A stretch of 63,345 bases of DNA, filler included, from Collodictyon triciliatum (taxonomy: Eukaryota), in NCBI GenBank assembly GCA_043381765.1. It is 11 parts of 11 records of this genome, joined end to end, with 100 filler letters (N's around TTAATTAATTAA, not from the genome) between each part and the next. Parts side by side here need not be neighbours in the genome. Positions count along the whole stretch, not along the records: positions 56,211 to 61,889 come from JBHJMP010004682.1; 10 more parts are not named here. One strand, written 5' to 3'. Each line of letters starts with the position of its first letter. Position 1 is the first letter of the stretch. The notes beneath the pieces were generated by a model, which saw only the letters and a list, made by a program, of their open reading frames with translations, was not told the DNA's origin and did not search any database. This document shows, piece after piece, positions 1 through 61,989 of this stretch. Made by a program: the position numbers and the translations under genes.

Positions 1-3000
1 GCGCCACTTCAATGGCAAGGCTCCGTCTCCCTTCATTCTTCTGATCAGAGTAACTGCAATTTGAGTGTCTGTTGAATTCATCAATTGATTCAATGTGTCG
101 GGCTGTGAGGTAATGTCATTAAGTGAGCGCATACCCTGGGCTCTGAGTGCGTCCTGGATTTGAGCCCAATCAGTTCCGGCAAGAACGCCACCGATTAAAT
201 CTGTATTACGCCTTAAACCACCATCGGGTGCCCTTGGTCCGAGGAAGCTGTTAATGTAATTGTTGAGTAAATCAAGCAGCTCAACGAGTTCGGGTGATGC
301 GGCAACGGGTGCGGGGCCTGTAGCTCTGCGTCGGTCACCTCTGCGGGGCAATGGCGCAAACTGTGTACTAGATGTAAAAATATTTCTCTGCATAACATTG
401 CCAGGAAAATTATCTGCGGGTGGTGCTGCTGCTGGGGCTGCTGGACGGTTTCTGTACACAATTCGCTCGACTTCACGGACGGGCCCAGGGACTTGGACTT
501 CACGGACAACTTCACGAGTTTCCCCAGGAATAATAATGGGCGGCCCGCGCACAGGGACCTCGACTCTTTCTGTGCGGACAACTTCACGGACGGGCCCAGG
601 AATAACAATGGGTCGATTGGCGCCGAGTGGGGCTTGGGGTCTAACAAGTAATTGCTGACGAGCTTGGGCTAATTCACCTTCAAGATCTCGCACACGGGCT
701 TCGGCTTGAGTTTTTAAATCTAAATCTGCAGCTCTAACTTGATTTAATGCTGTACGTTCTGCTGCAAATGCTGTACGTTCTGCTGCAAGCTCATTTTCAA
801 ATCCTGCGCGCTGTGATTCTATTTGTTCTTGAGCACGTTTAACATCTCGTTGTTTCTTTTCAAGTTCTCTGGAAATATCGGCATTCTCTCGATATAAATC
901 TTGAACTCTAGCTTTTTCAGTTTCAATAGTTCCCCTAAGTTCTGTAATTCTATTTTCGTTTACAAATACTTTATTTTGTTCAGTTCTAAGTTGCTCTTGA
1001 AGTCTACCAATAGTTTCATTACTTTTGCTAATTTGAGCTTGTATTGTTTGTTGGTCAACTGTAAGAGCATTTAAATCTGCTTGTAATTCATTAGCTCTAG
1101 CATCAGCTAAATCATATTTTTCTTGTAATTGTTCATTTTGTACATTCAGTTCGTTTAATCTTTCAGTTAAATTGTTTATATATTCATCAGCCTCTTTTAT
1201 CAAACGATTATATTCATTTTGGGCTTGTCTAATTTTTTCTCTCTCTTGGTCACTAATAAATATTGATTGAGTTAGTCTGTTATTTGTTATTTGTAACTGT
1301 TGTTCAAGGTTTGCTTTTTGGGTATTTGCAGTTTCAAGGTCTTGTTGTAATTGAAATGCTCGTTGATTAGCAGCTGTTAGTCTATCTCCTTGTTCACTGA
1401 CTTGAGCAGCAAGCGTTTTATTTGTAACCCCTAGAGCATCAAGTGCTGTTTTTTGTCTATCAACTATCTCTCTTAGTTTTTCGACTTCAAGTGAAATTCT
1501 GGGTGTAATTGGAAAATTAATAGGGGACGTTGCAGCACTTCGGGGTGAAGGATCTGGACTAGAATCAGGAGACCCGCCGGGTGCGCCGGGAGCAGCAGCT
1601 ACTTGTTGTTGTTGTTTGGCAGCTGCTAATTCATCTTGAAGTTTGGTAATTGTATCATTTAACATTCCGATTGTTTCATCGTTGGTTCGATTTTTCAAAT
1701 TTGCATCTCCTTCTAAATCAAAAATTTTTTTTGTCAAAATATCTACAAATTTTTGATGATCTGCTTCTAATTGTTGAACAAAAACTCTGTATTTTGGGTC
1801 TTGTTTAAGTTCTTTGATAAGGTCCTCATTCTCTTGAATTTGTTCAGTTAATTTTTCAATCTCTTTCACCTTTTCATCTAATCTTTGATTAAATATATGT
1901 TCCGTCTCTATTAATTTTTTGTCCGTTTCTTCAATCACTTTTTTATATGCATCTTCTGCAGTTTTTAGGGTATTTAAATTAGCTTCTATTTGTGCTTTTT
2001 CTCTTTCAAGAGTTGCAATTTTTTGTTGTAGTGTCCTTTCAGTCTCACTTATTAACAGTCCTCTTATTGGACTGCGTTGTTGTTGTTGAAGTTGTTGAAG
2101 TTGTTGTTGAAGCGTCTGTATACTACCTCTTGCTCTATTTAAATCTGCTTGTAATTCATTGTTTGCTCTTTGAATATTATCCATATCTCTAACTTTATCT
2201 CTTTCTAATGCTAATTCTCCTCTAAATTCCTCAATGTCTTCATATGCTTTTTTTATATCTCTGTGAAGATCTTCTTTTTGCTTTGCTAAAAATGCAACTC
2301 GTTTCTTCAAATTTTCAAATTCTGTAGGATCTATTTTTGGTTTGTCTAATTCTTTTTTTAATTCCTCTTTGGCACGGGTTGTTTCAGCTTCGTTTTTTTT
2401 TATATCTCTTTCTAATTGTGTTAATCTAGTAGATTTAGCACTTGTTTCTTCAAGAAGTTGTTTTTTTATTGCTAGTTCATTTTCCAAATCTGCTTTTAAA
2501 TTTGCTATTTCTCTGGATTTTCTTGTATTTTCATCGGAAAGTTTACTTACTTCTTGCATTTTTCCTGTAAAAATTTTATCCAACTCTTGATACTTTTCTA
2601 ACAATTTATTGTATTCCTCTTTTAATTTTTTTAATTCATCCTCACGGCCCTTTAGAGCTTGTTCTAATCCTGGTGCATTTGTTTTTTGTAATTCTTCTTT
2701 TAATCTTTTAATCTCTGCTTCATGAGCACTTATTTTTTTTTGTGCTTCTGTAAGATTATTTTGTGCTTGTAAAAGTTGAGATTGTGTTAGAGTGTCAAAA
2801 ACTGGTGTAGGTTGTCGAGTGCTTACTGACTGTGCTTGTTGTGAAGGCTGTTGTGCAGGTTGTTGAGTGCTAACTGATGCTTGTTCTGAACCTGTATCGT
2901 CTTGAGAAGTTAAACTTCTTCTAGCGGTACTAATAACTGCAGATGCAGTTGCGACTGCACCTCTACCAACTAAAGAAGCAGCACCCAGACTAACATTTAG

Positions 3001-4119
3001 TAAACCACTGCCAAGCGCACTAGCCCCTCGTGATAAAAAATTTGGCGACGCTGATTGACTTCTTTCTGTAAACTGAATCGATTCTGTTTTAAATTCAGCG
3101 GAAGACTCTCTAGCGGATTGAGATCTGCCCCGCACAGGAGTTAAAACATTTTCTTCTGTTTTTATCTGAGGGGTTGGGTCTGGGTTAAGTTCTGTTTTTA
3201 TTCGTTCGTCGCGGGGTGGACGTGCAGCAGGCATTTTAAACTGAGGACCTGGAGTTTTTCCGGCATTCTCCTTTCTTTTGCTTTCTAATTCAGCTGCAAG
3301 TCTAGCTGAAGCCTCTACTTCTGAAGAAGTTTGCTCGCTTGATTCTGTTGGTGTACGTGGTGTTAGTGTAGGTTGTTGATAGTTTGGTAGTAAATATGTT
3401 GCCATCTCTTCTCTCCATATATCATACAATTTATTAGCAGATAATTGTGTATTTCCTTTATATCCTATAAGATCTAATAAATGTTTAAAGTAATTTCTAT
3501 AATACACTGGGTCATTGGCTATGTCTGTATCAGAATGTATACTGGTTCGGGCAAAATCAATAACATCTTTTTTATTTTTAAATACCTGTCTGTAATTAAT
3601 TCGCTTAGTAATAAGTTGCAAATAGTCCATTTTTGTTTGTTTTGACTCTCCTGGAGAAAATGTAAAATGAAATTTATTTAACATAGCTTCGAGTTCAGCA
3701 GTTCTAAATTCATTTATATCAAAATATTTTTGTCGGAGTATGCTTGTTATTTGATCCAGAGTTAAATTTGAAACATCTCTAGGTGTTCCACTAGGTGATT
3801 GTTGTGGTTGAGCAAATACTCTAGGACTAGGACCAGCAGAAGCAGGCGCAGAACCAGGCGCAGAACTAGGAGCAGATCTAGGAGCACCCATCGGGTCCTC
3901 ATCATATTCAATATCAAATGGAGCATCTGCAACTATTCTGTTAGCAATAATTCTACCCGCAACGCCCTTGGATGGCCATTTTCCAAATCTTTGATAATAT
4001 AATTCTCTTAAATTGGCTACACGGTCTTTATCTGATAAATCTTTATATTCATCCAGTAATTCATCTCTCACTTGTTCTAATCCCAGGGTTTTAATATCTT
4101 CTTCTGATAGTTTGACCAT
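1..4119 (-). CDS. Very large coiled-coil/low-complexity hypothetical viral protein, at least 1373 aa, 3' end beyond the window start
   Basis: ATG at 4119 (MVKLSEEDIKTLGLEQVRDELLDEY...). The frame is open at every segment I spot-checked down to position 1 (...IAVTLIRRMKGDGALPLKWR). Long E/K/Q/L heptad stretches (e.g. QKANLEQQLQITNNRLTQSI) are separated by P/S/A-rich linkers. It is absent from the ORF track because it has no stop in the window. Confidence 0.8.
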   Translation of the reverse strand, partial: MVKLSEEDIKTLGLEQVRDELLDEYKDLSDKDRVANLRELYYQRFGKWPSKGVAGRIIANRIVADAPFDIEYDEDPMGAPRSAPSSAPGSAPASAGPSPRVFAQPQQSPSGTPRDVSNLTLDQITSILRQKYFDINEFRTAELEAMLNKFHFTFSPGESKQTKMDYLQLITKRINYRQVFKNKKDVIDFARTSIHSDTDIANDPVYYRNYFKHLLDLIGYKGNTQLSANKLYDIWREEMATYLLPNYQQPTLTPRTPTESSEQTSSEVEASARLAAELESKRKENAGKTPGPQFKMPAARPPRDERIKTELNPDPTPQIKTEENVLTPVRGRSQSARESSAEFKTESIQFTERSQSASPNFLSRGASALGSGLLNVSLGAASLVGRGAVATASAVISTARRSLTSQDDTGSEQASVSTQQPAQQPSQQAQSVSTRQPTPVFDTLTQSQLLQAQNNLTEAQKKISAHEAEIKRLKEELQKTNAPGLEQALKGREDELKKLKEEYNKLLEKYQELDKIFTGKMQEVSKLSDENTRKSREIANLKADLENELAIKKQLLEETSAKSTRLTQLERDIKKNEAETTRAKEELKKELDKPKIDPTEFENLKKRVAFLAKQKEDLHRDIKKAYEDIEEFRGELALERDKVRDMDNIQRANNELQADLNRARGSIQTLQQQLQQLQQQQRSPIRGLLISETERTLQQKIATLEREKAQIEANLNTLKTAEDAYKKVIEETDKKLIETEHIFNQRLDEKVKEIEKLTEQIQENEDLIKELKQDPKYRVFVQQLEADHQKFVDILTKKIFDLEGDANLKNRTNDETIGMLNDTITKLQDELAAAKQQQQVAAAPGAPGGSPDSSPDPSPRSAATSPINFPITPRISLEVEKLREIVDRQKTALDALGVTNKTLAAQVSEQGDRLTAANQRAFQLQQDLETANTQKANLEQQLQITNNRLTQSIFISDQEREKIRQAQNEYNRLIKEADEYINNLTERLNELNVQNEQLQEKYDLADARANELQADLNALTVDQQTIQAQISKSNETIGRLQEQLRTEQNKVFVNENRITELRGTIETEKARVQDLYRENADISRELEKKQRDVKRAQEQIESQRAGFENELAAERTAFAAERTALNQVRAADLDLKTQAEARVRDLEGELAQARQQLLVRPQAPLGANRPIVIPGPVREVVRTERVEVPVRGPPIIIPGETREVVREVQVPGPVREVERIVYRNRPAAPAAAPPADNFPGNVMQRNIFTSSTQFAPLPRRGDRRRATGPAPVAASPELVELLDLLNNYINSFLGPRAPDGGLRRNTDLIGGVLAGTDWAQIQDALRAQGMRSLNDITSQPDTLNQLMNSTDTQIAVTLIRRMKGDGALPLKWR

Positions 4120-4155
4120 AATACATTAGCCAATATAAATTTTCTGCGTAATAGT

Positions 4156-4515
4156 ATGATCGTTGATGTTAGGAAGGGAGCTAGGGGAGTTGGTCGATTT
4201 CTCACGCGACACACAGAAGGTGCTTTACAGAAAATACGAAAACTGGACGATGCGTATATGGATTTGAATAAAGCGTCGGGTGGCTTGGTCGAACTTGGGC
4301 TGCAGGGCACAGGGCTCAAGCCTGCGTTCCAGACAATAGCTAATCCGCTGGTGACGGCAATCACGGCAACCAATATGCTCGGCCGTGGTTTGTCGACGCT
4401 GGGAAAAACAGACTGGAACTTGCAGAACGCTAGGAACATTGGCTCGGGCATCCAGGACATCGGCCAGGCCTACGTGCTTGCTTCAACTGGAAATGCGTTT
4501 AGGCCATATTCTTAA
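4156..4515 (+). CDS. Small Gly-rich, basic, amphipathic hypothetical viral protein (119 aa), possibly structural
   Basis: Clean ATG-to-TAA ORF packed between the giant ORF and the capsid gene, in the same orientation as the capsid gene. Confidence 0.65.
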   Translation: MIVDVRKGARGVGRFLTRHTEGALQKIRKLDDAYMDLNKASGGLVELGLQGTGLKPAFQTIANPLVTAITATNMLGRGLSTLGKTDWNLQNARNIGSGIQDIGQAYVLASTGNAFRPYS

Positions 4516-4536
4516 ATTTTTTTTCTATGTATTGTT

Positions 4537-6117
4537 ATGGCAGATTTTCCGACAGAAGCAAAGTACATGCGTATTAAAAATTACAATGACAAAGTTTTGG
4601 CAAGACACACAACCAGAATTAGTCCGTTCAATGGTTCCGTATTTGGACCAAGAGCAATTGACCGAATACTTTTTAATATACCTTCCGAAACTGGAATGGA
4701 AATTGATATGGACACTTTGATGTTTCACTTTGACGCTCAAATCGATTTGGGTGCAGATTTAGCTGCTAATACCACTGCTAGAGTTATGTTTTTGAATTCG
4801 ATTGAATCGGTCATTCAAACTCTCCGAATTAGGAAAGGCACATCTTTTTTAATTGAGGATATCCAACGGTACAATTACCTTGATTCAATGTTTATGAATT
4901 ATCTTAGTGATGATTATAATAAGTGTGTAGGAAATGCAATGATGGGGATTGGGCCTGTTACTGATAGATTTACACAAATACCTGCTGGATCACGATTAAA
5001 TACTAAAAAGAATTATTGCATTCCGTTTAGATTGTCGGGTATTTCAAATTACAGCGGGTTGATTAGCACCTCATTGATTGACCAGGTGAGTGCCTTCCAA
5101 TTTGAAATTGAGCTGGCCCCTGCAGCAGATGCAATTCAAGTGAATCGGGACGATATTGCTGCGGGCACCGTGGCTGATTTTGGCAAGGCACCTGCTACTT
5201 CAACTTATATTTTGAATAATTGTTATCTTAGTTACGACCTAGTAAGAATGTCACCGGATTATCATGCTCAGCTCCAATCAAGTATTAATCGCGGAATTCC
5301 TTTACAAATTCCATATAAGACCTGGCGCACAAGTATGTATTCAATTGACGGAACAAATACTACATTTACTCTAAATATTAATGACACGGTTAAATCTTTG
5401 AATAGTGTGTTTGTTGCATTCTTTCGGCAAGATGAGCAAGGTAAACTAACAATTAGTGGTAAGGACAGGAAACACAAGCCTGATAATTTAAAGACAGTTC
5501 AACTGCAGTTAGGTTCATTTTATTATCCGTTGCAACCCTGTGATTGTGAGCGACAAGCTACTCAAGCTTTTCTCGAGCTTCAGAAGGCGCTGGGTCTTGC
5601 ATTTGTCCGGTCAGAGTACAACGGGCCTTATGGATTTGAAGGTAAATATTATTCACAGACTTATCCAAATACCAGTGCGAATTTAGTCACACCGAATGGG
5701 TTTGCTGAAAACGCGCCCACTGCATTATTAAATCCTTTTGGTGTTGCTTATACTGCTCCAATAGGTCCAGCAGATGGAGTGGCGTATAAAACAAATTATG
5801 ACGGTGTTGGCCACCAAGCCGGTGGAAATATAGCGCACAATGCTGCTAATATTGCTAGAGCGCCTAGATTTGCTACAGAAGCAGGAGGTAGTCCGTGCAC
5901 AGAATTCCTAATCGGGTTTAATATGCGGAAAGTTCTCGATGCGACGGAAGGGGAAATAGTCGGTACAGACATCCAGTCTTCCGGATCTGGTTTGATGACA
6001 TTAAGATTAGAATTTAATCAGGGTGGTCCGGGCGTTGCATATAATATCGTCGTTGCTTCGCTGTATGATGCCGTACTGGAAATTCAATCCAACCAACAGG
6101 CATTCCGTGTAGAATAA
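4537..6117 (+). CDS. Major capsid protein, double jelly-roll, Polinton-like virus type (526 aa)
   Basis: Motif order matches what I recognise from PLV capsids: SPFNGSVFGP..RILFNIP, IDMDTLMFHFD, SVIQTLRI..G...IEDIQRYN, QFEIELA, SLNSVFVAF, QLQLGSFYYP.QP, AFLELQKALG, FLIGFNM, YDAVLEI. Beta-rich and intronless. Confidence 0.8.
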   Translation: MADFPTEAKYMRIKNYNDKVLARHTTRISPFNGSVFGPRAIDRILFNIPSETGMEIDMDTLMFHFDAQIDLGADLAANTTARVMFLNSIESVIQTLRIRKGTSFLIEDIQRYNYLDSMFMNYLSDDYNKCVGNAMMGIGPVTDRFTQIPAGSRLNTKKNYCIPFRLSGISNYSGLISTSLIDQVSAFQFEIELAPAADAIQVNRDDIAAGTVADFGKAPATSTYILNNCYLSYDLVRMSPDYHAQLQSSINRGIPLQIPYKTWRTSMYSIDGTNTTFTLNINDTVKSLNSVFVAFFRQDEQGKLTISGKDRKHKPDNLKTVQLQLGSFYYPLQPCDCERQATQAFLELQKALGLAFVRSEYNGPYGFEGKYYSQTYPNTSANLVTPNGFAENAPTALLNPFGVAYTAPIGPADGVAYKTNYDGVGHQAGGNIAHNAANIARAPRFATEAGGSPCTEFLIGFNMRKVLDATEGEIVGTDIQSSGSGLMTLRLEFNQGGPGVAYNIVVASLYDAVLEIQSNQQAFRVE

Positions 6118-6151: not shown

Positions 6152-6251
6152 NNNNNNNNNNNNNNNNNNNNNNNNNNNNNNNNNNNNNNNNNNNNTTAAT
6201 TAATTAANNNNNNNNNNNNNNNNNNNNNNNNNNNNNNNNNNNNNNNNNNNN
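6152..6251. other. Artificial contig-joining linker N44-TTAATTAATTAA-N44; recurs at 12399, 18647, 24895, 31141, 37387, 43626, 49870, 56111 and 61890
   Basis: The same 100-nt spacer, with stops in all six frames, occurs 10 times. Confidence 0.98.
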
Positions 6252-12313: not shown

Positions 12314-12660
12314 TCTTTTTTTCTTTTTTTTCTTTTTTTCTTTTTTTCTTTTTTTCTTTTTTTCTTTTTTTCTTTTTTTCTTTTTTTCTTTTTTTCTTNN
12401 NNNNNNNNNNNNNNNNNNNNNNNNNNNNNNNNNNNNNNNNNNTTAATTAATTAANNNNNNNNNNNNNNNNNNNNNNNNNNNNNNNNNNNNNNNNNNNNAA
12501 AAAAAAAAAACAAAAAAAAAAAAAAAAAAAACAATAAAAAACAATAAAAAACAATAAAAAACAATAAAAAACAATAAAAAACAATAAAAACAATAAAAAA
12601 CAATAAAAAACCATAAAAAACCGTAAAAAACCATAAAAACAATAATAAAAAAAAAAGAAA
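12314..12660. repeat. (TTTTTTTC)n and (AAAAAACAAT)n tracts on either side of a linker
   Basis: Direct inspection. Confidence 0.9.
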
Positions 12661-18646: not shown

Positions 18647-18746
18647 NNNNNNNNNNNNNNNNNNNNNNNNNNNNNNNNNNNNNNNNNNNNTTAATTAATT
18701 AANNNNNNNNNNNNNNNNNNNNNNNNNNNNNNNNNNNNNNNNNNNN

Positions 18747-20045: not shown

Positions 20046-21271
20046 ATAGAATTTTATTATATGTGGAAAATATAATATAGTTAATTTTTTCTTTGTAGTA
20101 ACAGTTTTAAGCACAAATAATTCGCAAAGTAGCATATTCAAATATATTCATGCATTATAATACATCTTATGTAACCTCTTTAACATGCCTGTTCAATGGA
20201 TTGAGCTAGTTATCATAAGCTTAGTTGGTAGCTAACCACGCCGTTCGAAATTCCAGAAATGGATAACAATAATTTTATCCTAATGTAGCAGCAGGACTCG
20301 CTCTGTTGATTTCAACCGCACACCAAATGAGCCCATGAAACAATCGCAGAAAAAGCCCAAATATATGCATTAATAGAAAATATCAAGTTTTCTTAAATAT
20401 ATCACCAATTACGGGTTTAAATAGTTTGATAAAAGGCACGTATCCATATTAATTCAATTTCCATTTTAAGAATACTATATAGACAGGAAAACAAGCGGAG
20501 AGAAAAAGCAAAGCGCGAGTTGACAAAACACAAATTTCCAAACAATTCGACATCCAATGAAAAAGATTCATTTCCATTAGGGAGAAACCTTGTTGAATAA
20601 CACAAGACTCGCGAGAATTGTTTTTTCTAAATGAAATATTCAAAGGAAAAAACCACATAAAAAAGCCAAAGCGAACGCAAACTAAGCGCATTAGCAAATA
20701 TCGAGGCGAACAATCCGAAAACAACGTGATTTCAAAGCCAATCGAACCCGCGGAGATATCCCAGCCATCGGTTCACTCAGCCGTCGATTCTATCGGCCAT
20801 TTCGGTCCTGCGCCTGCACCAAACGAAACGGGAGATTTCAAACATGAGCATCGACCATCAAANNNNNNNNNNNNNNNNNNNNNNNNNNNNNNNNNNNNNN
20901 NNNNNNNNNNNNNNNNNNNNNNNNNNNNNNNNNNNNNNNNNNNNNNNNNNNNNNNNNNNNNNNNNNNNNNNNNNNNNNNNNNNNNNNNNNNNNNNNNNNN
21001 NNNNNNNNNNNNNNNNNNNNNNNNNNNNNNNNNNNNNNNNNNNNNNNNNNNNNNNNNNNNNNNNNNNNNNNNNNNNNNNNNNNNNNNNNNNNNNNNNNNN
21101 NNNNNNNNNNNNNNNNNNNNNNNNNNNNNNNNNNNNNNNNNNNNNNNNNNNNNNNNNNNNNNNNNNNNNNNNNNNNNNNNNNNNNNNNNNNNNNNNNNNN
21201 NNNNNNNNNNNNNNNNNNNNNNNNNNNNNNNNNNNNNNNNNNNNNNNNNNNNNNNNNNAGCTTATGTCATG

Positions 21272-21544: not shown

Positions 21545-23295
21545 ATGAGCGACGACTCCGCCAAGCAAACGGCGACAGACTTTCTGGGGACCTTTGCCAC
21601 ATACCAGAAGCGCGGACAAAACGCAGGACCAAACACGCGGCCGGCAGCGCGCCTTTCTCTCTCCGAACCAAGTCCATCGCCCGGGCCAAACGCAACGCCT
21701 CCACTGCACTCGCAATCCATTTCGCCCTCAACTTCACCTTCACCTTCGCCTTCGCCTTCGCCTTTGCCTTTGCCTTTGGCCCCAAACAGCACCGAAACGT
21801 CCCCAACACTAATGGGACACGCCGCCGCCTTGACCACGGATCCGGCCCTGCTTACGTCTCTGCCGCTGTTTATCCCGGCCAACGCAACGCTGACCAACAC
21901 TCACTCACTCAAACCACACTTCCGGCGCGTCCACGAAGCCGGGCCGGGCTTTGGTTCGGACTATGACTCGGGCATCGGCGTTGGGATTGGGACTGGGATT
22001 CCGGCTGGTTTGGCTGCCGCGATGGACATCGACCCCGCACACGGAGTCGACAGCGGCAATGCAGACCGGATTGAAGCGGCTGCCGAGTGCAAAGCGGCTG
22101 CGATTGTGCCGATCCTCAAAGTGCCAAAGAAGTGGCCGTCCTTTGCAGAGACCGGCCATCGCGCATCCCATCCGGAAATCCGCATCACAAACGAAGCCAG
22201 TGACTCGGGGTCCGGCGCAGAGACAGACGCAGATGCAGCAGCAAGACAGGCCGATGCCCTTGCCATCAGTCTGCGCAAGGCGAGCGGGCGCTTTCTGGGG
22301 CTGGCCTTGCCCGAACCCATGGGCCATGCAGCAGACTCCGACTCGCACTTGGATCCGAATCAGAGCCCAAGCCCTAGTCCGAGCCCCAGCGTCCGGTCGC
22401 ACCAGCGGGAGATGCAGAGCAAGAATCTTGCTGCAGACGTGACGGATCCACATGAGCTCGGCTCACTTCACCCCACAAACACGGCACCTACAAAAGTGAA
22501 CGCCATTCCAAACCTGAATCAGTTTGATCCATTCCTGAACGCAGCAACCTTTATGGACGAGATTCATTCCGTGGTCTACCCGCTCACAATATTGAATCCA
22601 AATCAGATGTTTCATCAGTACTGGGACATGTTTATGATGATCATCATCCTGTACAACGCAGTCACCATCCCCATGCAGGTTGCTTTCCCAGTGCTCATCA
22701 CCCCGGGCGTCAGGGCCACAGAAATCTTCTTCAACATTTGCTTCATGATTGACATTGTTATCAACTTCCGCACAGCTTACGTCGACAGAGGTGTTGTGGT
22801 GGTGGACGGCCGGCTGATTGCCAGACAATATCTCACCACGTGGTTCTTTGTAGACTTCTTCTCGGCCATCCCGTACGACTGGATCATCGATCAGTTTACG
22901 GAATCAAACAATCTCTCTCGGCTGCCCCGTTTGATTCGCATGGTGCGTTTAATCAGACTCTTTCGGCTGGTGCGCGTCTTTAGACTCGTCAGAGTTTTTC
23001 AAAAGTGGTTTTCGCACATTCGCCTCAATCAACTTGCTCTTCGTGTTGTCAAGCTCGTTTTCATCCTGTTTTGCATATCCCACTACGCCGCTTGCGGTTG
23101 GGTCTTTGTTAGCACCATAGAAGACCCTGATTATACCTGGTGGTCGTTCTACGATAGAAAGACTTACCAGGATAACACAGTCAGCTCTCGATATCTGAGT
23201 GCTCTTCATTGGGCTGTCACCACCATAACGACGGTTGGATACGGGGACATTGTGCCGAAGGTATTACTAAATATAATTGATATAATCATACAGTA

Positions 23296-23337
<42 letters not shown>

Positions 23338-24894: not shown

Positions 24895-25090
24895 NNNNNN
24901 NNNNNNNNNNNNNNNNNNNNNNNNNNNNNNNNNNNNNNTTAATTAATTAANNNNNNNNNNNNNNNNNNNNNNNNNNNNNNNNNNNNNNNNNNNNAAAAAA
25001 AAGAGAAAAAAAGAGAGTAAAAAAAAGAGTAAAAAAGAGAGTAAAAAAGAGAGTAAAAAAGAGAGTAAAAAAAAAAAAAAGAGTTCTCAC

Positions 25091-31140: not shown

Positions 31141-31240
31141 NNNNNNNNNNNNNNNNNNNNNNNNNNNNNNNNNNNNNNNNNNNNTTAATTAATTAANNNN
31201 NNNNNNNNNNNNNNNNNNNNNNNNNNNNNNNNNNNNNNNN

Positions 31241-37234: not shown

Positions 37235-39412
37235 ACTCGACCTCCCCTTTTTCTTATTTCTTTTCTTTTTTTTTTCCTTTTTCCTTTTCTTTTTCTTTTT
37301 TCTTTTTCTTTTTCTTTTTCTTTTTCTTTTTCTTTTTCTTTTTCTTTTTCTTTTTCTTTTTCTTTTTCTTTTTCTTTTTCTTTTTCNNNNNNNNNNNNNN
37401 NNNNNNNNNNNNNNNNNNNNNNNNNNNNNNTTAATTAATTAANNNNNNNNNNNNNNNNNNNNNNNNNNNNNNNNNNNNNNNNNNNNTTATTGCTTTTTTT
37501 ATTGCTTTTTTTATTGCTTTTTTTATTGCTTTTTTTATTGCTTTTTTTATTGCTTTTTTTATTGCTTTTTTATTGGGGTTTTTATTGGGGTTTTTATTGG
37601 GGGTTCGCCTCCGGTTCTCCATCTATGAGTTGGAGACGTTGCGATAAACAATCGATTTGAGGCCTTGTGCAATCATTGGTAACTATTGTATGCTTTTGTG
37701 TGTGAATGTTACGAGTTGTTTCTGCTTGATTGATTTGATTGCCTGTTTAAAGAAGAAAAAAAAAAGAATTCTACTTCATCAGACTAATCGTGATTTTCCG
37801 TATCGAAACCGTGGTGCAGCATGGGATACCAATTCACTCGATGTGTTACGTACACTGGTTCTTTGATACGAAAAGACCACGTGACTGTAAGATATACTAA
37901 TACTATGCTCGAGATTATGATTAATATACAAATATCAGTCTCCTACTCGAGTTTGCTCTCTAGCATACGCACCTTTGTCTCCCCTTGTATAGTTTAGCCC
38001 TGTGGCACTTCGAATCGAATGAAGGAGGGGGGAAAACATTCAGATATCAACATGCACAACTCGCACGAAATGAAAAGAAGAGAAAAAAGGGGTAAGATAA
38101 CACGTACAGTTTGAATTTATACAATAATAAAAAAAAAAAATCGATTTGAAGAAAGCGAATAGCCTTGATGCTTTTGATGTTGTTCACGAAATGGATTGCG
38201 AGGCACTCAGCTACAAAGTTGAAGAGGAGCGAGGCCAGCTGGCAGCCTTGGTAGACGCTGCTTTGTCTCTGCATTCTATCTGCAGGGCCGTATGCAGTCA
38301 TAATCCTGATTGTGGTGACCATAGCTGAGGGCCCTTCCACGTAAACCTGGTAAATTGGGTCTCGGCGCTCTGCCACGCCTCTTCTCTTGAAGATAGATGT
38401 TATCCGCGTGGGTGAAAAAGGCTGTCCTGTAAACCACTTTCTGTCTTTGGGGTTTTTAATCCCTAGCGTTCCGCGACAAAACGCCGAAACACTTGGTCTG
38501 TTTTTAGAGAGCGGGGGTAAAAAAAAACATATGTGAGAGTAACAACACAATCATCTTGTCCAATTACGTTTGCAGATATCTTTGTGTTGGCTCTAGTGTC
38601 TTCTCCTACTCGCGTTTGCTCTCTCCCATGCGCTCCCATCCCGCCCCTTTGTATGGCATAACCTCGCTACACTTTGAATCGAATAAAGGAAAAAAAAAAT
38701 CTTTGTGTTGGCTCAGTAGTGAGGATAATGGGTGCATCTGTGGCGATGGTTTCAGTCGATGTTGTTGCATATGCTTCCTCAAGGTGCATCCCTCGGATCT
38801 TTTGGTGATGATAATTTCTTTGTGATATTAATGGAGGTCACTAAGGCCTCCCCTATAGGAAGCTGTGTGCTTTGCGCAGCGCGACAAGAAAAAGAAAGCT
38901 TCAAGGGCTGATTGCCTTCCAGCCTCTTGCAATCCTTCCGTAAGAGCACCACCCGCCTTCGCACTTTGACGAATTGCAGAATCGAACCCACTGCGAGCTA
39001 CTTCCAGAAATGAGACATACCTGCCACAAATATTATCACATTTGGTATGATTGCTTGTATACAACTTGTTTCAAATATGGAAAATAATATAATATATACA
39101 TATTGGTTTCAAATTTTAATATAATTATCTATCTTAATACAATTCAATATAAAAAATTAACAAGCACTTGATTATATATAACCAAAAGCTTCCATGAATC
39201 CGTTACTGGCAGCCGCATCCAGCAAAGCGTTACAACCGCCAGGTGGCACCACGCGGAAAAATCCGTAACGGCCACATCACGCTATTTATAGCCCAGCTTC
39301 ATATATAGCCGGCTTCGCTTTGAAAATATCCTTCTCTAGCACATCACTCATTATCACAAAGCAACACAACCCAAGCCACGAACCAAGCAAGCAACACCTT
39401 CGGTACGCCTAA

Positions 39413-40840
<1,428 letters not shown>

Positions 40841-41128: not shown

Positions 41129-43418
41129 TCACTCTGTGGCGCCACTGATCAGCGCCATCAGGAAGCGGGCCTGATACGGATCGAAGCGGAAGGGGCTCTC
41201 CAGCAAGTCTCTGTACTCGATGCCGAGAAACTCGGCGCCTGTGACTCCGACCTCCCTGAAGCGATCCAGAATGGCCCGGCCCGCATTGTTGGCGTGGAGA
41301 TACGCGACAAGGCCGCCCGAGTCCAGGCCTTTGGGCCCCTGCTTGGCAAGTCCTTGAGGCTCCATCACGCGGGCCAGCTCCATGTCGACTTGGGTGGCGG
41401 TGATGCGCTTTTCATAAGCGGGTTCCCAGCACGCGCGAATCAGAGTCGCCAGCCTGGGCGGACAGGAGGCCGGGATGAGAAGGGAGTTGCCGGTCATGAC
41501 TCTGTGGCCGATTACGCGCGATTCAAGGCCTTCGTAGGGATACTCGCCGGCAAGCATCGACCACATGACGACTCCGAACGAGTACACGTCAGAGGGGAGA
41601 CCAGCGCTCTTGCCGTAGTCAAAGACTTCGGGTGCTGCCCAGTGTTTGGAGCAGATCAAACTGGAGTCTGAGTTGACCGAGACGCCGCTCTTGGAGACCC
41701 CAAAGTCTGACAGCTTGGCCACGCCGTTGACGAGCAGGATGTTTTCGGTCTTGAGGTCGCGGTGCTGGATGGGCGGGGTGGTGGTGTGGAGATAGGCAAG
41801 GCCCTGGATGATGTGCTTTCCAAACCTCATGGTCAGCTCGTTGCCCAGGGCCTTGACCCTTCGAATCAGCGAGCGCAGGTCGCCCCCGTCTGCAAACTCC
41901 ATCAGCATGAGCAGGTCGTTGCCCCGGTAGCCAAAGTCCAGGAGGGCCAGGATGTTTGGGTGGCGTAGGGCGAGCATCATGTAGCCTTCTCTCTCCGCCT
42001 CGAGCGACCCCAATTGCCGGGCCACGAGGGCATCCGAGATTTTCTTGACTGCGTAGTCTACCGACTTGAGAACCACCCGATATGCGGTGCCGAACCCGCC
42101 TTTGCCGAGAAAGTTTTCGGGCTTTTCAAAGTCGGTGGTGAGGATGTCGCTGTACATCCCAGGGGTGAATCTCTTTGGCCCTGTTGCTTCGGTGATTATT
42201 ATTATTATTATTATGTTCGTTCCAGAAAAAGTGCGCGTTAGTAGATAATATAGTAGTTACATGGGAAAGATATCAGGCTGGTGTCTATTTCTAAGGGAAA
42301 AGATTGGGAAGAATAAATCACGCAAATGGAAATATAAGTTATTTTTTTCTTTCTAACCAGAGATTGGCTGCTGCATGGGATAATTGGCAGTGGGGGATAT
42401 TAAGTTAGATTTTATCGTTCGAATACATAAAAACAAACAAACAAACAAACAAACAAACAAACAAACAAACAAACAAACAAACAAACAAACAAACAAACAA
42501 ACAAACAAACAAACAAACAAACAAACAAACAGTCTGAGTTAGTTGTTGGGATACGTTATCAATGGATGAATCAATGGATCATATAAAGCGAACTTTCTCT
42601 TTTTTCTTTTTACAGATACTTTTTTTTTAAGTAGTATTACTGGCTCGTACAGCTGCAGAGTCCTCAAAGCTTGTGCGATTGTTAACTTCATATCTCCCTT
42701 TTTCGGGTCCGTGTGATTGTTCCAACAAGGCAAGTTCGTAATTCCGCTGGGGGCTCTCTTAATGGTCACATTCCCGTTCAGTTCCATGTAGATGTATTCA
42801 AGATTGACCAGTGCTGTTACATGCTGCGGAAGTTCTTGTATCTGCGTTTATAGGGAGAGGGCTTATCAATACACGACCTTTTATCTTGCATCTATTTTCG
42901 ACCACAAGCGCAATCTTCAATGTGCTTCGCAAACATATTCATATATATGCAGCGATGTAATCGCATACCAAATTACCGCGAATACTCAGATGCTCGAGAG
43001 CTGTCAGGCAGGATATCTCCAGCTGCAGTGTTGCCAGTCGGTTCTCTCGAATGCTCAAGTCTTTGACCTTTGTCAAGCACGATATTCCCCTTGGAAGTGA
43101 CGTCAGGCTATTTCCTCGAGCTTCTATCCTTACAAGACTTGTCAACAGGGATATCTCTGAAGGCAGCGATGTCAGCTTATTTTCAGAGACGACTAGCTCC
43201 ATCAGACCCATCAACCGCATTATTTCTGAAGGCAGAGACGAAAGCTGGTTGTTGGAAAGGGACAATCGGACTAAACGGGTCAAGGCAAAAACACCGAGCG
43301 GCACAGACGTCAGGTTCTTGAAGGAGAGTTTCAGCGTCGTGCGGTTTCGGAGTGTGGCCTCATCCGGATCGCCGATCAGCTTTTGCAGGTCTTTGAGACG
43401 TGCAGGGTTGTCTGACAT
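41129..43418 (-). CDS. Leucine-rich-repeat + TKL-type protein kinase + SAM-like tail, spliced
   Basis: LRR exon with LxLxxNxLxSLPxEI repeats (42960-43418), a linker exon near 42650-42850, and a kinase exon (GKGGFG, YAVKK, HRDLKTEN, DFG, WAAPE, SDVYSFG). A helical C-terminal ~65 aa resembles a SAM domain. Confidence 0.8.
42430..42531. repeat. Intronic (AAAC)n
   Basis: Direct inspection. Confidence 0.95.
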
Positions 43419-43725
43419 TGTCACGAGGGGTTGGACCGGAGTCTGGAAACTGCGCGACTGGCGGGGCTGCGGTGGGTGAGGAAAACAGAGGCCGTGAGCA
43501 CTCTGGTGCGCTCCTGGAGCTTTATTTTTCTTTCTTTCCTTTCCTTTCCTTTTTTTTTTTTTTTTTTTTTTTTTGTTCGGGTGGTTTTTTTTTTTTTAAT
43601 GAAATAAAAAAAAAAAAAAACAAAANNNNNNNNNNNNNNNNNNNNNNNNNNNNNNNNNNNNNNNNNNNNTTAATTAATTAANNNNNNNNNNNNNNNNNNN
43701 NNNNNNNNNNNNNNNNNNNNNNNNN

Positions 43726-49317: not shown

Positions 49318-49969
49318 TTCTGTTTTTGCCGTGTTTATTGGGCAACCCACGCGGCGCACGATGCTCAAGATGTCTGTTGTCTCGTGGGTGATATGGTGAG
49401 GCCTTGGCAAAAGCAACGCGGACTTGATGTTTGGGTGATTATCGTTGATGACAGGGCGAGAAAAGAGACAAAGACAAAGATAATCAAACCACAAACGCGA
49501 GCTTATCAATCAAAAAGGCTGGTGTGCGGTTCTTGAGATGAGTTGGGTAAAATTATGTCGCAATCTTTTATGATTGAAATATAATATTTTCCAGATTATT
49601 TTTTTAATTATGGAATATACAATAATTATCTTATAAATCATGAAGCTATTATTCAATTGGTATTGTAATATATATTTGCATCACACATCATCATAGGAGC
49701 ACAAATATGTGGCTTCTTCGATTGTAAACACAGGAGGTGTGTGTTGAAGCCACAAGCGAGAATTATATGCACCAGTGTCTGGTTTAGGCTGGCACTAAAA
49801 TTTCCACAAATATATAAATATTTGTCCAATTCAATAAAAATCATCTATCCTGATGTTCCAGATATATAANNNNNNNNNNNNNNNNNNNNNNNNNNNNNNN
49901 NNNNNNNNNNNNNTTAATTAATTAANNNNNNNNNNNNNNNNNNNNNNNNNNNNNNNNNNNNNNNNNNNN

Positions 49970-56110: not shown

Positions 56111-56210
56111 NNNNNNNNNNNNNNNNNNNNNNNNNNNNNNNNNNNNNNNNNNNNTTAATTAATTAANNNNNNNNNNNNNNNNNNNNNNNNNNNNNNNNNN
56201 NNNNNNNNNN

Positions 56211-56700
56211 TTTTTATTCTTTCTTTTTATTCTTTCTTTTTATTCTTTCTTTTTATTCTTTCTTTTTATTCTTTCTTTTTATTCTTTCTTTTTATTCTTT
56301 CTTTTTATTCTTTAGTCTTTTATTCTTTTTATTCTTTTTATTCTTTTTATTCTTTTTATTCTTTTTATTCTTTTTTATTCTGTTTTATTCTGTTTTATTC
56401 TGTTTTATTCTGTTTTATTCTGTTTTATTCTTTTTATTCTTTTTATTCTTTTTATTCTTTTATTCTTTTATTCTTTTATTCTTTTATTCTTTTATTCTTT
56501 TATTCTTTTATTGTGGCAATATTTCATGTTTTTCCTCTGCATCGACTTTTTATTATTATTATTATGATTATTATGATGACTATGATTATTATGATTATGT
56601 TTATTATGTTTATTATGTTTATTATGTTTATTATGTTTATTATGTTTATTATGTTTATTATGTTTATTATGTTTATTATGTTTATTATGATTATTATTTT
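56211..56700. repeat. (TTTTATTC)n-type and (TTTATTATG)n simple repeats upstream of the TRIM-like gene
   Basis: Direct inspection. Confidence 0.9.
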
Positions 56701-56728
56701 GATAAATAGCCACCGTAGCAGCCAAACA

Positions 56729-59700
56729 ATGGAGAGTGAATGCAACTGCCCAGGATGTGGAAAAACTTTCGAAGATCCGCGCATTCTCCCTTGCAAACAC
56801 GTTTATTGCGTGACCTGCGTCAGAGATATGAGCAAAACACCCATCGACTTTCTAGACCAAAGCAAAGGAACGAAGTCGTGTTGCTTTCTGTGCGAAACTG
56901 GATTTACACTCCGCAATGGTGATCCGAAGTCCCTCCCTCAGTCAGAAAAGCACTTGGATATTGTGGAGACTTACAAGAAGGCGCCAACTTTCGTGACTTT
57001 CAAGTGCGATGAGCATCCTGAGAAAGAAGCAGTGAAGAGGTGTCTGAGTGGCTGTGACCATATTTGCGAAGATTGTGTTTCCGCTCATAAAACTTTAAGG
57101 CTACTGAAACCCCATAAACTTGTGTGAGTTTTATTTTATATTTATATATTCTACGCTTTTTCATAACTTTCCAGATACTTTTATTTCTTTGTTTCGAATG
57201 TCAAGATATAATATATTATTGCATCTTTTGTTTAATTTTTACTTCTGTTTACATAAATAAATAAACTCAGTGATGTGGACAAATCGAGGCCAGTTGTTTT
57301 TGATACTGCGTGCCCAGAGCATATGCAACCCTTCACAGAATTCTGCCCAAAAGAAAGCTCGGAGAATCCTTTCATGTGTGCAATGTGCATCGGCCAGCAT
57401 TTAAAACAAGTTGGAAAGTGCGAACATGGGGAATTCAGCACGGGTGCTCAGAAAATTTGTAAAGATTTAGGCGATAATAAAAAGAAGATGGACGAGCATA
57501 ACAAATCCACTGCAACCTTAGTGAACAAAATCGAAGAAAAGCAGACTGAGGTACGCGAAATTCAATCATGGACATCTACACATTTCTTGATTTCATGACT
57601 TCAGCATTTCATGATGGAACTCTTTGCATGTAAGGTTGAAAATTACATCTCGAACTTGAAGAGCAAGGCCAAAGAGGAGTTTGAAAAAATAAGAAAGGTA
57701 GTAGATGAGGAAGAGCTGCGATTTATGGAAAAGGTATGTGTTCATTTCAGCTTACTTTTATGCCAACGTAAATAATGCGATTATAAAATGACCTATCGAA
57801 TATTTCAACAGATTGACGCCTTCCACAAAAAAATCATATACCCATTTTCTACCATGGGAGGGCATCTGAAATTCTTGAAGGAGCATTTGCAACATTCAAA
57901 TAAATTTGTGGATGAATCAATTAAAGTATTTGTTGAAGGAAAATCCCCAGTTAAACTTCCTCTTGCTAAAAGAACCTCGATTTCGGTGTTGTCGAAAAAA
58001 ATCCCTACGATACCCGAAAGCTTTGCTGAATTTGCTGAAACCGTGCCATCATTCACTTTTACTGAGACAAAACCTGGAGATATACGACCTCCTGCTGCGG
58101 TGTTCACTGAGTTAATTTCATCCTCCTCTGAAGCCCCATTGAGACAGTATTCATCATGTGAGCCTGAGTTACCTTCATCAGAATCAAAATAGACCCTCAT
58201 CTAAACAAGCTCTCCAATTCAAAGCTCATTCATCGCGCCAAGCTCGACTTCATGGGCCCAAAGCTCAACCCACACAAGCAGCACGTTCACAGGTGAACTC
58301 ATTATGTAAACATGTCAGTATATAATTGCCCATAATTCCTTGAAACACAACTCCTGAATTTCAACGATGGGTTGGTGGCATAAACACTGAAGGAGGTAAC
58401 ATTTTAATTTATAAATACGTTAATGGCTGAATATTCAAAAATCAATGTTCTCTAGCTCTTTTATCTTGATATACACAATTTATGTTTTAACCAGATCCTT
58501 TTGACAACCATCAATTTTTTTCTGTTTTAAAAACCTTTCCTCTAATAACTATTTTGCATTTTTTTTAAGGGTGTAAGTTTCATTTTATCATGATGTTATA
58601 TTTACATATTGTTGAAGTCATATTACATCGATGGTGTTGATGTTTCTGTGGAATTATATCGGTGTGAGCTAAAATGGAATATATGCCTGAATATCGTGAC
58701 AAACTTGGTGAAATCATAGGTGGTAAGTTTATTATTCCTGGAAAAAGAATAATTCTATTTAATTGTTAGATAATATGATCTCTATTTTCAATTAGAGATG
58801 CATAACTATGTTTATAAGATATAAGTGTTAACCGATTCATATGAATACACTATGATGAAATATTCATATAATTTCTGTGTCTGATACGTGTATAATCATA
58901 GCAAGTAATTTTTATTCTGTTTTAAGATACGATAATTTGCTAAAAATAAACATATTCGGTTGTAAATACGAGACGCATAATTATGTATACAAGATATAAG
59001 TGCTAAATAATTCATGTGAATACATCATGATGCAATATTCATATGATTTCTGTGCCTGGTATGGTATAATCATAGAAAGTAAGTCTTTATTCTCACGAAA
59101 GATAAGATAATATGATATGATATGCATAATTATGTATACAAGAAATAAGTGTTAACCGGCACATGAGAATACACCGTGATGCAATATTCATATGGTTGCT
59201 GCGTCTGGTACATGTATAATCATAGAGAGTAAGCCTTTATTCTCACGAAAGATAAGATGATATGAGATGATAAAAATAAACATACATGTTCGTTTCTAAT
59301 TATGTGATGCATAATTATGTATATAAGAAATAAGTGTTCATTGACACATGTGAATGCACCATGATACAATATTCATATGATTGATGTGTCTGGATTGCAT
59401 AATAATAGGTTGTAAGTTGTTATTAGTCTTGAGAAATAAGATAATACGAGATAATAAATAGAACCATATTCGTTTCTAAATGTGTGATGCATAATTATGT
59501 ATATAAGAAATAAGTGTTAAGCGGCATATGTGAATACATCATAATGCAGTTTCATATGATTGATGTCTCTGACATTTATAATCATAGCTTGTAAGTTGTT
59601 ATTAATCTTAAGGGATAAGACAATACGATATGATAAAAATAAACATATTCCTTTGTAAATATGAGATGCATAAGTATGTATGCAAGAAATAAGTGTTAAC

Positions 59701-61752
59701 TGGCACATGTGAATACATTTTGATACAATATTCATATGATTGATGTGTCTGGATTGCATAATAATAGGTTGTAAGTTGTTATTAGTCTTGAGAGATAAGA
59801 TAATACGAGATAATAAATAGAACCATATTCGTTTCTAAATGTGTGACGCATAATTATGTATATAAGAAATAAGTGTTAAGAGGCATATGTGAATACATCA
59901 TAATGCAGTTTTCATATGATTTATGTGACCGACATGTATAATCATAGCTTGTGAGTTTTTATCCCTCTTGAAAGATAAGATTATATGAGATGATAAAAAT
60001 AAACATATTTGGTTGTAAACATGAGATGCTTCATTATGTATACAAGAAATAAGTGTTAACTGATTCATGTGAATATGCCATGATGTAATATTTAATAGAT
60101 TCTGTGTCTGATACGTTTGTAATCATAGCCTGTAAGTTTTATTAGTCTTGTTAGTTATATAAAATGAGATGGTGAAAATAAACATAATCCTTTGTAAATA
60201 TGAGAAGCATAATTATGTTTACAAGAAACAAGCGTTAACCAACACATGTGAATACACCATGATGTCATATTTAATAATTTTTGTCTGATTTTTGTTGATA
60301 ACCATAGGCAGTACGTTTTTTCACTCTTGAAAGACAAGATATTATGAAATGCTAAAAATAAACATATTCGGTTGTAAACATGAAATGCATAATTATGCAT
60401 ACAAGAAATAAGTGCTAAATGAAGCATGTGAATACGTCATGATGCAATATGCATGTGATTTCTGTGTCTCATTTTTCTGTAATCATAGTTTGTAAGTTTT
60501 TATTTTCTTGAAAGATAAGATAATGCAAGATGATAAAAAGGACCATAAATTCCTTTGTAAATATGGGATGCATAATTATTTATACAAGAAACATGTGATA
60601 ACTGACACATGTGAATACACTGTGATGCAGTACTCATATGATTGAGTCTGATATGTGTGTAATCATAGGACGTATGTTTTTATTTCTATTTAATCGTTAA
60701 ATTACGTGAGATGATAAAAAGGACCATACATTCCTTTGTAAATATGGGATGCATAATTATGTATACAAAATATAAGTGTTAACCAACACATGTGAATACA
60801 CTGTGATGCAGTACTCATATGATTGTTTCTGATATGTATACAATCATAGCAAGTAAATTTAATTCTCTTGGAAGACAAGATAATAAGATATAAAAATAAA
60901 CTTATTAATTTGTAAATATGTTATGTATGTTTATGTATACAAGAAATAAGTGTTGACTGACACATGTGAATACAATATGATGCAATATTCATATGATTGC
61001 TGTGTTTGGTACGTATATGATCATAGATTGTAAGTTTTTATTCACTTGAAGGTTAAGATAATATTATATGCTTAAAATATACATATTCAGTTGTAAACAT
61101 GAGATGCATAATTATGTATACAAGAAATAAGTGATAAATGATTCATGTGAATACACCATGATGCAATAATCATATGATTGAGTCTGATATGTGTATAATC
61201 ATAGAAAGTTTGCTTTCATTTGTCTTGAAAGAAATATATAATATAATATTAGATGATAAGATAAATATATTCGTTTGTAAATATTTGATGCACAACTATG
61301 TACATAAATATAAGTGTTAACTGAGACATGTGAATACACCATGATGCAATACTCACATAATTTCTGTGTCTGTTTGTGTATAATCATAGTTTGTAAGTTG
61401 TTATTCTCTAGAAGATAAGATAATATGAGATGATAAATATACCCATACATTCGTTTATAACTATGAGATGCATAATTATGTATACAAGAAACAAGTATTA
61501 ACAGACACATGTGAATGAACCATGATGCAATACTCATATGATTTCTGCATTTGGTACGTGTATAATCATAGCTTGTAAGTTTTTATTCTCTAGAAGATAA
61601 AATAATATGAAGTGATAAAAAGTTAACATATTCGTTTGCTAATATGAGATGTATAATTATGTATATAAAATATAAGTATTCACAGACACATTTGAATATA
61701 CCATTATGTAATATTCATATGATTGAGTCTGATATGTGTATAATCAAAGAGA
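56729..61752 (+). CDS. TRIM-like RING + two B-box + coiled-coil protein, predicted to continue through a chain of 3-nt micro-exons; 3' end missing
   Basis: RING (CPGC..PRILPCKHVYCVTC..CFLC), B-box-like CDEH..C..C.HICEDC..AH..H and CPEH..FC..C..C..H, then coiled-coil exons. Approximate exons 56729-57122, 57271-57550, 57635-57733, 57812-58157 and 58225-58292. The RBCC part is secure. The extension past 58157 is inferred; unspliced, the frame stops at 58192. Confidence 0.75.
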
Positions 61753-61779
61753 GTAAGTTGTTATTAGTCTTGAAAGCAA
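58723..61779 (+). repeat. Tandem array of 17 complete diverged ~180-bp units (one shortened to about 150 bp) plus a truncated one; each unit has the form of a GT...AG intron plus a 3-nt exon
   Basis: Consensus gtaagtttttattctcttgaaagataagataatatgagatgataaaaataaacatattcgtttgtaaatatgagatgcataattatgtatacaagaaataagtgttaactgacacatgtgaatacaccatgatgcaatattcatatgatttctgtgtctgatacgtgtataatcatag-NNN. Confidence 0.95.
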
Positions 61780-61889
61780 TATGTTATGTTATGTTATGTT
61801 ATGTTATGTTATGTTATGTTATGTTATGTTATGTTATGTTATGTTATGTTATGTTATGTTATGTTATGTTATGTTATGTTATGTTATGT
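61780..61889. repeat. (ATGTT)n microsatellite that truncates the 180-bp array at the contig end
   Basis: Direct inspection. Confidence 0.95.
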
Positions 61890-61989
61890 NNNNNNNNNNN
61901 NNNNNNNNNNNNNNNNNNNNNNNNNNNNNNNNNTTAATTAATTAANNNNNNNNNNNNNNNNNNNNNNNNNNNNNNNNNNNNNNNNNNNN

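Follow-up and report, generated by a model that had tools for sequence, protein, structure and literature searches.

A sense-strand satellite in a TRIM-like gene of the Collodictyon triciliatum assembly, possibly grown by tandem amplification of a short intron and an adjoining 3-nucleotide exon

We analysed a 63,345-nucleotide (nt) stretch of DNA from the Collodictyon triciliatum assembly GCA_043381765.1 (hereafter, the window). One piece of it, at 56211–61889 (JBHJMP010004682.1), carries a RING and B-box (TRIM-like) gene starting at 56729 on the plus strand, together with a satellite lying on the sense strand of this gene. Each satellite unit begins with GT and ends with AG, successive units are separated by exactly 3 nt, and the array begins at a splice donor. 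Two further triplets of the same kind, GGT and GTG, lie between the last ordinary exon of the gene and the first satellite unit, and they follow that exon, in order and in frame, in the mRNA of close relatives. On the basis of this RNA match, GGT and GTG are probably real 3-nt exons. The repeat itself may well have grown inside the gene by tandem amplification of a short intron and its adjoining 3-nt exon, a reading that we consider evenly balanced between true and false. The features of the gene and of the array are given below, where X1 and X2 denote two sequencing runs from related organisms and the monomers are the units of the satellite.

56729–57123, plus strand: exon 1, with the start codon, a RING finger and the first B-box (Pfam, X2 contig joint, open frame)
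57271–57550, plus strand: exon 2 (5' joint from an X2 contig; 3' end predicted from the GT at 57551 and the open frame)
57635–57733, plus strand: exon 3 (open frame; joint 57731 to 57810, cut +2, GT..AG, in X1 and X2 contigs)
57812–58157, plus strand: exon 4 (open frame; X1 and X2 contigs span 57973–58155 and continue at 58225)
58158–58224, plus strand: 67-nt intron, GTGAGC..AAG, holding a TAG at 58190–58192 (joint 58155 to 58225 in X1 and X2)
58225–58292, plus strand: exon 5, ending in phase 0 at CAG|GT (within spliced contigs; frame analysis)
58293–58569, plus strand: unique 277-nt intron ending in T8-AAG (no repeat similarity, z 0.1 against the monomer consensus)
58570–58572, plus strand: GGT, probable 3-nt exon (strong acceptor upstream, GTAAGT downstream; relatives' spliced contig)
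58573–58719, plus strand: unique 147-nt intron, GTAAGT..ATCATAG, with no satellite unit (comparison with the monomer consensus)
58720–58722, plus strand: GTG, probable 3-nt exon (AG and GT flanks; relatives' spliced contig)
58723–61779, plus strand: satellite of 17 monomers of 147–182 nt, each GT..AG, with 3 nt between them (repeat finding and alignment)
61780–61889, strand not applicable: terminal (TATGT)22 microsatellite of the piece (Tandem Repeats Finder, 22 copies, 100% matches)
61890–61989, strand not applicable: artificial linker N44-TTAATTAATTAA-N44, after which a different piece follows

Four sequencing runs were found to hold parts of the stretch: X1, X2 and two freshwater metagenomes. 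The metagenome runs contained 151-letter contigs identical to parts of the TRIM-like gene, and the X1 and X2 contigs were about 93–95% identical to it and came from related organisms. X1 and X2 are small runs, and their RNA label is only guessed by the run annotation. Three intervals with GT..AG ends (57124–57270, 57734–57811 and 58158–58224) are absent from the X1 and X2 contigs, which are therefore spliced transcripts of close relatives. The first of these joints (57123 to 57271, GT..AG ends) is bridged by an X2 contig, and the joint 58155 to 58225 was accepted allowing for two substituted letters. A further interval, 57551–57634, is predicted from the sequence to be a fourth intron. With the four introns removed, the reading frame is open from the ATG through exon 5 and ends in phase 0, and the five ordinary exons encode a RING/B-box protein with 396 residues ahead of the array. 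The preliminary description of this sequence had placed an exon at 58225–58292 and had considered that transcripts might end at the TAG at 58190–58192. Exon 5 is present in the X1 and X2 spliced contigs and the TAG lies within the 67-nt intron removed in those of both relatives.

The Pfam matches in exon 1 were zf-RING_UBOX (E 6.6e-06), zf-C3HC4 (E 1.1e-04) and zf-B_box (E 3.4e-04), and the protein clusters nearest to this exon were TRIM2/3-like and mostly molluscan. Protein searches with exon 1 (for longer proteins) and exon 4 (for proteins of similar length) yielded nothing at E <= 0.001, and no orthologue was therefore found to reveal the next exon.

An X1 contig departs from the stretch at 58293 and continues with 80 unlike letters, and an X2 contig agrees with it in its joints and in its length of 334 letters. 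The first 30 of these 80 letters read, in frame, GAG GGT GTG CCT GCT CGA TAT TCT CAA TCT, the exon joined after GGT GTG beginning CCTGCTCG. The adjacent codons GGT-GTG would be expected by chance with a probability of 0.0012–0.0019 (codons drawn from the host gene, or shuffles). Beyond that, the ordered agreement of the relatives' codons with the list of triplets is not significant: the longest common subsequence (LCS) was four codons (p 0.06; shuffle p 0.017), a value of at least four being reached in 41 of 387 ten-codon windows of the host gene, and the LCS of five residues was no better than chance (p 0.14–0.25). The 30 letters were not found in the window, with up to 3 mismatches allowed. 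Thus, of the series of single-codon exons previously proposed, GGT and GTG were recovered after exon 5, in order and in frame, but they are followed by CCT GCT CGA rather than by CAA AAA AGA GTT.

The gene runs in the order exon 5, 277-nt intron, GGT, 147-nt intron, GTG, satellite, and an unspliced X1 contig leads from exon 5 through the intron and the 147-nt interval to the junction and a satellite unit, so the same layout is present in the relatives. The pyrimidine fraction before the AG of the 277-nt intron is 0.87, the highest among all the intervals. That the first triplet follows a non-repeat intron, as described previously, was confirmed, the 277 nt upstream of GGT being unique. However, the array does not begin at 58570, as had been claimed: the interval 58573–58719 does not belong to the repeat (against the monomer consensus, local z 1.1 and global interior z 0.22), and the satellite proper extends from 58723 to 61779. 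Its first true monomer (58723–58901; z 46 against the consensus) aligns from the first G of the donor, directly after GTG. The ends of 58573–58719 match the monomer ends at 8/10 and 8/10 positions, and those of intron 1 at 8/10 and 7/10. As the spliced intron 1 resembles the monomer ends about equally, these are the usual intron ends of the gene, and the possibility that 58573–58719 is a decayed monomer with conserved ends was rejected.

The satellite monomers are arranged head to tail, with a mean column identity of 79% over 16 of the 17 monomers aligned, and the final monomer of the array is cut after 27 nt. Tandem Repeats Finder detected a period of 180 bp (14.8 copies, 75% matches, 59115–61776) and a higher-order period of 359 bp. 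All 19 junctions listed in the preliminary description were verified: AG|NNN|GT holds at 19/19, with exactly 3 nt between AG and GT and spacings of 150–185 nt, and the triplets take 12 distinct values and include no stop codon (0/19). GTAAGT was confirmed as the main donor (12/19 junctions). The branch-point-like CTGAY reported before the AG is present in 8/17 monomers, but at a distance of 19–23 nt rather than 15–20. The absence of stops is not significant, its probability by chance being 0.16 at this base composition.

A contrast in conservation between the splice-like letters and the triplet had been proposed beforehand as a check, and it was found. In an alignment of 17 junction-centred units, the AG and GT columns are invariant and the three triplet columns have 1.90, 1.76 and 1.25 bits, the mean over all columns being 0.59 (standard deviation 0.46). 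No other 3-column window varies as much as the triplet (4.91 bits, with 3.85 for the runner-up), which ranks 1 of 170 for contrast with its flanks, yet 44/177 columns are invariant overall. The triplets are also structured: one group is NTT and another is A/C-purine-A, and within each of the two closest pairs of units (6% and 14% apart) the triplet is identical. These pairs form a higher-order dimer at 59409–60128, in which units 59409 and 59768 are 6% apart and both have GTT, and units 59588 and 59948 are 14% apart and both have CTT.

Several other properties of the monomers were recorded. They contain an internal direct repeat, ATATGAGATG followed by A or C and then by ATAA, in copies about 37 nt apart, and precisely the stretch separating these copies is missing from the 147-nt monomer at 59079–59225, as a deletion between copies predicts. 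On its minus strand the array is traversed by open frames of 93–127 aa (59517–59834, 60155–60436 and 61199–61582) that are rich in Cys, His, Tyr and Ile. They are open because the period is near a multiple of 3; none extends beyond one or two units before it is interrupted, their composition is that of an AT-rich repeat, and they were rejected as coding sequences. A satellite bearing a ribozyme (hammerhead and similar) can be dismissed, as an Rfam scan of the window gave no family at the gathering score, with only two sub-threshold, chance-level matches inside the array and no self-cleaving motif, and the monomer consensus has no conserved fold (-2.8 kcal/mol, 1/15 pairs compensated).

An origin by amplification of an intron-plus-codon module would account for most of these features together. 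The founder module would have been one short intron and its neighbouring 3-nt exon, tandemly amplified inside the gene, so that each monomer would be a copy of an intron (starting with GTAAGT, often with CTGAY about 20 nt before its end, and ending with ATCATAG) plus one codon. Such a module explains the GT start and AG end of the monomers, the constant spacing of 3 nt and the start of the array at a splice site, as well as the length of the monomers (147–182 nt), which falls within the range of the introns of the host gene (67–277 nt). The duplicated segment includes both donor and acceptor. Both the history of amplification and the removal of the array by splicing are inferred. Provided that the founder module was spliced, splicing of its copies is to be expected as well, and each of them would add one codon to a linker between the coiled coil and the downstream part.

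Several observations weigh against this interpretation. The RNA comes from relatives rather than from C. triciliatum, and the comparison with it covers 30 of the 80 letters that follow exon 5. In the relatives' mRNA, GGT is preceded by an additional GAG, which is absent in the window, and their unspliced contig has 41 letters in place of the 216 nt around the first junction (58397–58612). Furthermore, X1 and X2 contain a second family of contigs whose sequence upstream of 58256 differs. This points to paralogues, so that the contigs with and without introns may stem from different loci: GTG is followed by CCT in the relatives' mRNA and by a satellite unit in the unspliced contig. The mean pairwise difference between units is 0.68 in the triplet and 0.24 elsewhere, a roughly threefold excess that simple duplication does not explain, since copies under ordinary drift should differ at the triplet no more than at neutral intron positions. 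Constraint or homogenisation may act on most of the monomer while leaving the triplet out, or else mutation or selection may work differently on the triplet. Finally, the array runs into the end of the piece, and its right end and the next exon lie off the piece.

The second family of contigs shares 58256–58396 and the 147-nt interval with the stretch, and its more than 255 differing upstream letters are apparently open in the frame of exon 5; the relatives probably contain a paralogue that has the end of exon 5 and the downstream part in common with this gene. In addition, one relative's contig follows a monomer to its final AG (60128) and continues with unrelated letters, and another departs right after a triplet (59228). 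These loose ends could be array ends or could reflect use of the donor at other loci. The X1 letters after 60128 and those after GGT are alike at 12/25 positions, too weak a likeness for use.

The stretches of the array without X1 or X2 cover carry no information. The 17 inner triplets are not recognisable in the relatives' mRNA, but the array of the relatives may consist of only a few monomers here. Retention of the inner triplets in the mRNA of C. triciliatum is conceivable but somewhat doubtful. A tentative possibility, to which we give a little less credence, is that every monomer is a short intron of its own, the mRNA having at least 19 single-codon exons, and that unequal crossing-over changes the array in steps of one intron and one amino acid, gained or lost. 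A cassette purpose-built for variability is clearly less probable than the inclusion of the inner triplets; if used, the inner codons, being stop-free, in frame and in a linker, would be tolerated rather than designed.

The preliminary description had gone further, interpreting the array as a cassette in which every monomer is spliced as its own intron, at least 19 single-codon exons enter the mRNA, and skipping generates many protein variants. This is unlikely, although it agrees with a good part of the data: the splice-like ends at 19/19 junctions with their exact spacing, the absence of stops, the sense strand and phase 0, a triplet that is the most variable site, and monomers that share the signals of the two upstream modules supported by RNA. 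Splicing unit by unit would also be mechanically plausible, the monomer length being suited to short introns recognised by intron definition. However, the relatives' mRNA departs from the triplets of the window after GTG, and its letters there differ in composition (52% G+C over 31 letters, compared with 33% for the triplets and 43% for coding sequence). The contigs of the relatives show a single path over 80 letters, with no branching as would result from alternative inclusion, so the expected combinatorial skipping found no sign in them, although contigs drop rare variants. The stop-free triplets add little, for the reason given above, and the units most alike have the same triplet, which is what ordinary descent would give. 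The interpretation of one codon per exon was supported in part.

The micro-exon genes of Schistosoma are characterised by series of short, symmetric exons whose skipping preserves the frame, and the array, with its candidate exons of one codon, would resemble them in this respect. The micro-exons of Schistosoma measure 6–36 nt, lie outside satellites and encode secreted proteins made mostly of micro-exons, whereas the gene described here encodes a RING/B-box protein with 396 residues from five ordinary exons, to which no signal-peptide test was applied. Recursive splice sites, or ratchet points, also have an acceptor shortly before a regenerated donor, within a long intron; there, AG and GT adjoin with no letters between them and nothing is left in the mRNA, whereas exactly 3 nt separate them at all 19 junctions of the array.

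It might also be that the repeat is an ordinary intronic satellite whose monomer fortuitously contains TAG-NNN-GTAAGT, the junctions being unrelated to splicing and the match of GGT-GTG coincidental. Alternating conserved and variable blocks are common in satellites, and in this one other 3-column windows reach 3.6–3.9 bits and a quarter or so of the columns (the 44 noted above) are invariant; moreover, the pattern was selected from a very large scan, with the look-elsewhere effect that this entails, and the branch-like motif is present in only 8 of the 17 monomers. We nevertheless consider this explanation improbable. The adjacency of GGT and GTG has a chance probability of 0.001–0.002, the array starts exactly at a donor, the contrast of the triplet with its flanks has the first rank, and the array lies on the sense strand with its triplets in phase 0. 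Pure coincidence is hard to hold against the match of GGT-GTG together with the exact start of the array. Short satellite-like arrays have been described in molluscs, some of them on Helentron-type elements (available parts of PMC7492417 and PMC5139131), and, as in the array, these have AT-rich monomers of about 160–180 bp, are short, lie near or in genes and adjoin microsatellites; splice-like monomer borders are not described for them in those parts, and the likeness is one of size, composition and setting.

It is very improbable that the GT..AG units are mobile intron-like elements of the introner type or their descendants, the 3 nt being letters of the target or flank. Introners are repeated elements of similar size that are bounded by GT..AG and spliced out, according to the portions available of 10.1101/2022.06.06.494994 and PMC12130899, and the units of the array share the similar size and the bounds. 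Conserved ends beside a nearly saturated triplet (0.68, compared with about 0.70 for random draws at the same composition) would suit such elements, as would the contigs from the metagenomes and the relatives in which related units have other surroundings (loose ends at 58256, 58668 and 60128). However, no terminal inverted repeat or matching target duplication was seen around the units by eye (no formal scan was made), the two ends of a unit not being inverted copies and its flanking triplets being different, independent insertions would not yield a constant spacing of 3 nt with differing triplets, and the triplets group with the subfamilies of units. Introners, as far as these sources describe them, are dispersed as single copies in many genes, whereas the units here are in tandem at one locus, and dispersed copies were not found in two scans of the metagenome contigs. 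In those scans, a 21-base monomer pattern had 0 matches; a second monomer pattern matched at 20 loci, once at each, and these were rejected as chance matches, none being array-like by blastn.

The favoured origin, from an amplified intron and its codon, can be set beside two published phenomena. Plants have exons of 1 nt, as well as adjacent exons of 5 and 12 nt, with conserved GTRAGT donors (PMC8831610, in part), and the lengths of Drosophila microexons are enriched at multiples of 3 (PMC8042270, in part). GGT and GTG, as candidate 3-nt exons in phase 0, are similarly tiny, in frame and equipped with strong GTRAGT donors, and an acceptor and a donor on the sense strand of a transcribed gene were found both at these two triplets and in the array (AG and GT at 19/19 junctions; spliced contigs). 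Two adjoining 3-nt exons followed by 17 candidates within a tandem repeat are not described in the available parts of PMC8831610 and PMC8042270. Tandem duplication is also accepted as a model of how introns are gained, although few cases have been proven: a duplication spanning splice signals creates a new intron that takes its donor and acceptor from neighbouring copies (PMC4974935, available parts). The copies in the array likewise carry donor and acceptor, but the published cases, as presented in those parts, are single duplications that leave the mRNA unchanged, whereas here there are 17 copies, each contributing 3 nt if used. No description of a satellite of intron-plus-codon modules was found in a search limited to open-access text, and searches of the literature with sequence words of the monomer returned unrelated papers only.

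Two neighbouring 3-nt exons, if true, would be near the lower size limit known for spliceosomes. An intron-plus-codon satellite, if true, would mean that introns can multiply by plain tandem duplication and yet be harmless, because every copy comes with splice sites of its own and leaves the reading frame intact, and the rapid gain of multiple introns and the tolerance of intragenic repeats would become testable at one locus. Unit-wise splicing would, if true, be a new route for intron gain and for the lengthening of protein linkers. Conversely, if the inner sites are never used, the locus would be a clean natural test of a spliceosome ignoring 17 consensus decoy sites.

The remainder of the window consists of other sequences. 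Ten linkers of the form N44-TTAATTAATTAA-N44 split it into about 11 pieces of roughly 6.1 kb each:

6152–6251, 12399–12498, 18647–18746, 24895–24994 and 31141–31240: artificial linkers
37387–37486, 43626–43725, 49870–49969, 56111–56210 and 61890–61989: artificial linkers, continued

Most pieces have a microsatellite at their start or end, the G+C content ranges from 0.25 to 0.61 among them, and their contents are unrelated (a tubulin and a kinase in one, an ion-channel gene in another). The linkers, the microsatellite ends and the strong differences in G+C indicate that the window is made of joined separate contigs, and the pieces probably derive from several organisms. The piece with the array (5.7 kb) starts in a (TTTTTATTC)n repeat and ends in the (TATGT)22 microsatellite. 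The tail of an ABC transporter, from 61990 on, belongs to the next piece and is therefore uninformative on the array locus.

In a piece of about 60% G+C, a tubulin gene free of introns lies at 39413–40840 on the plus strand (Tubulin E 3.7e-64, Tubulin_C E 1.4e-52), with a protein kinase at 41129–42256 on the opposite strand (E 1.1e-46). This piece is clearly from another organism than the AT-rich piece with the TRIM-like gene. The first piece, 1–6117, has an unbroken frame of 1375 aa on the minus strand that resembles a coiled coil, and a 533-aa frame at 4516–6117 on the plus strand without a Pfam match. An Ion_trans domain was identified at 22400–23296 on the plus strand (E 5.4e-26), within an open frame of 615 aa adjoined by a gap of 396 N (20863–21258).

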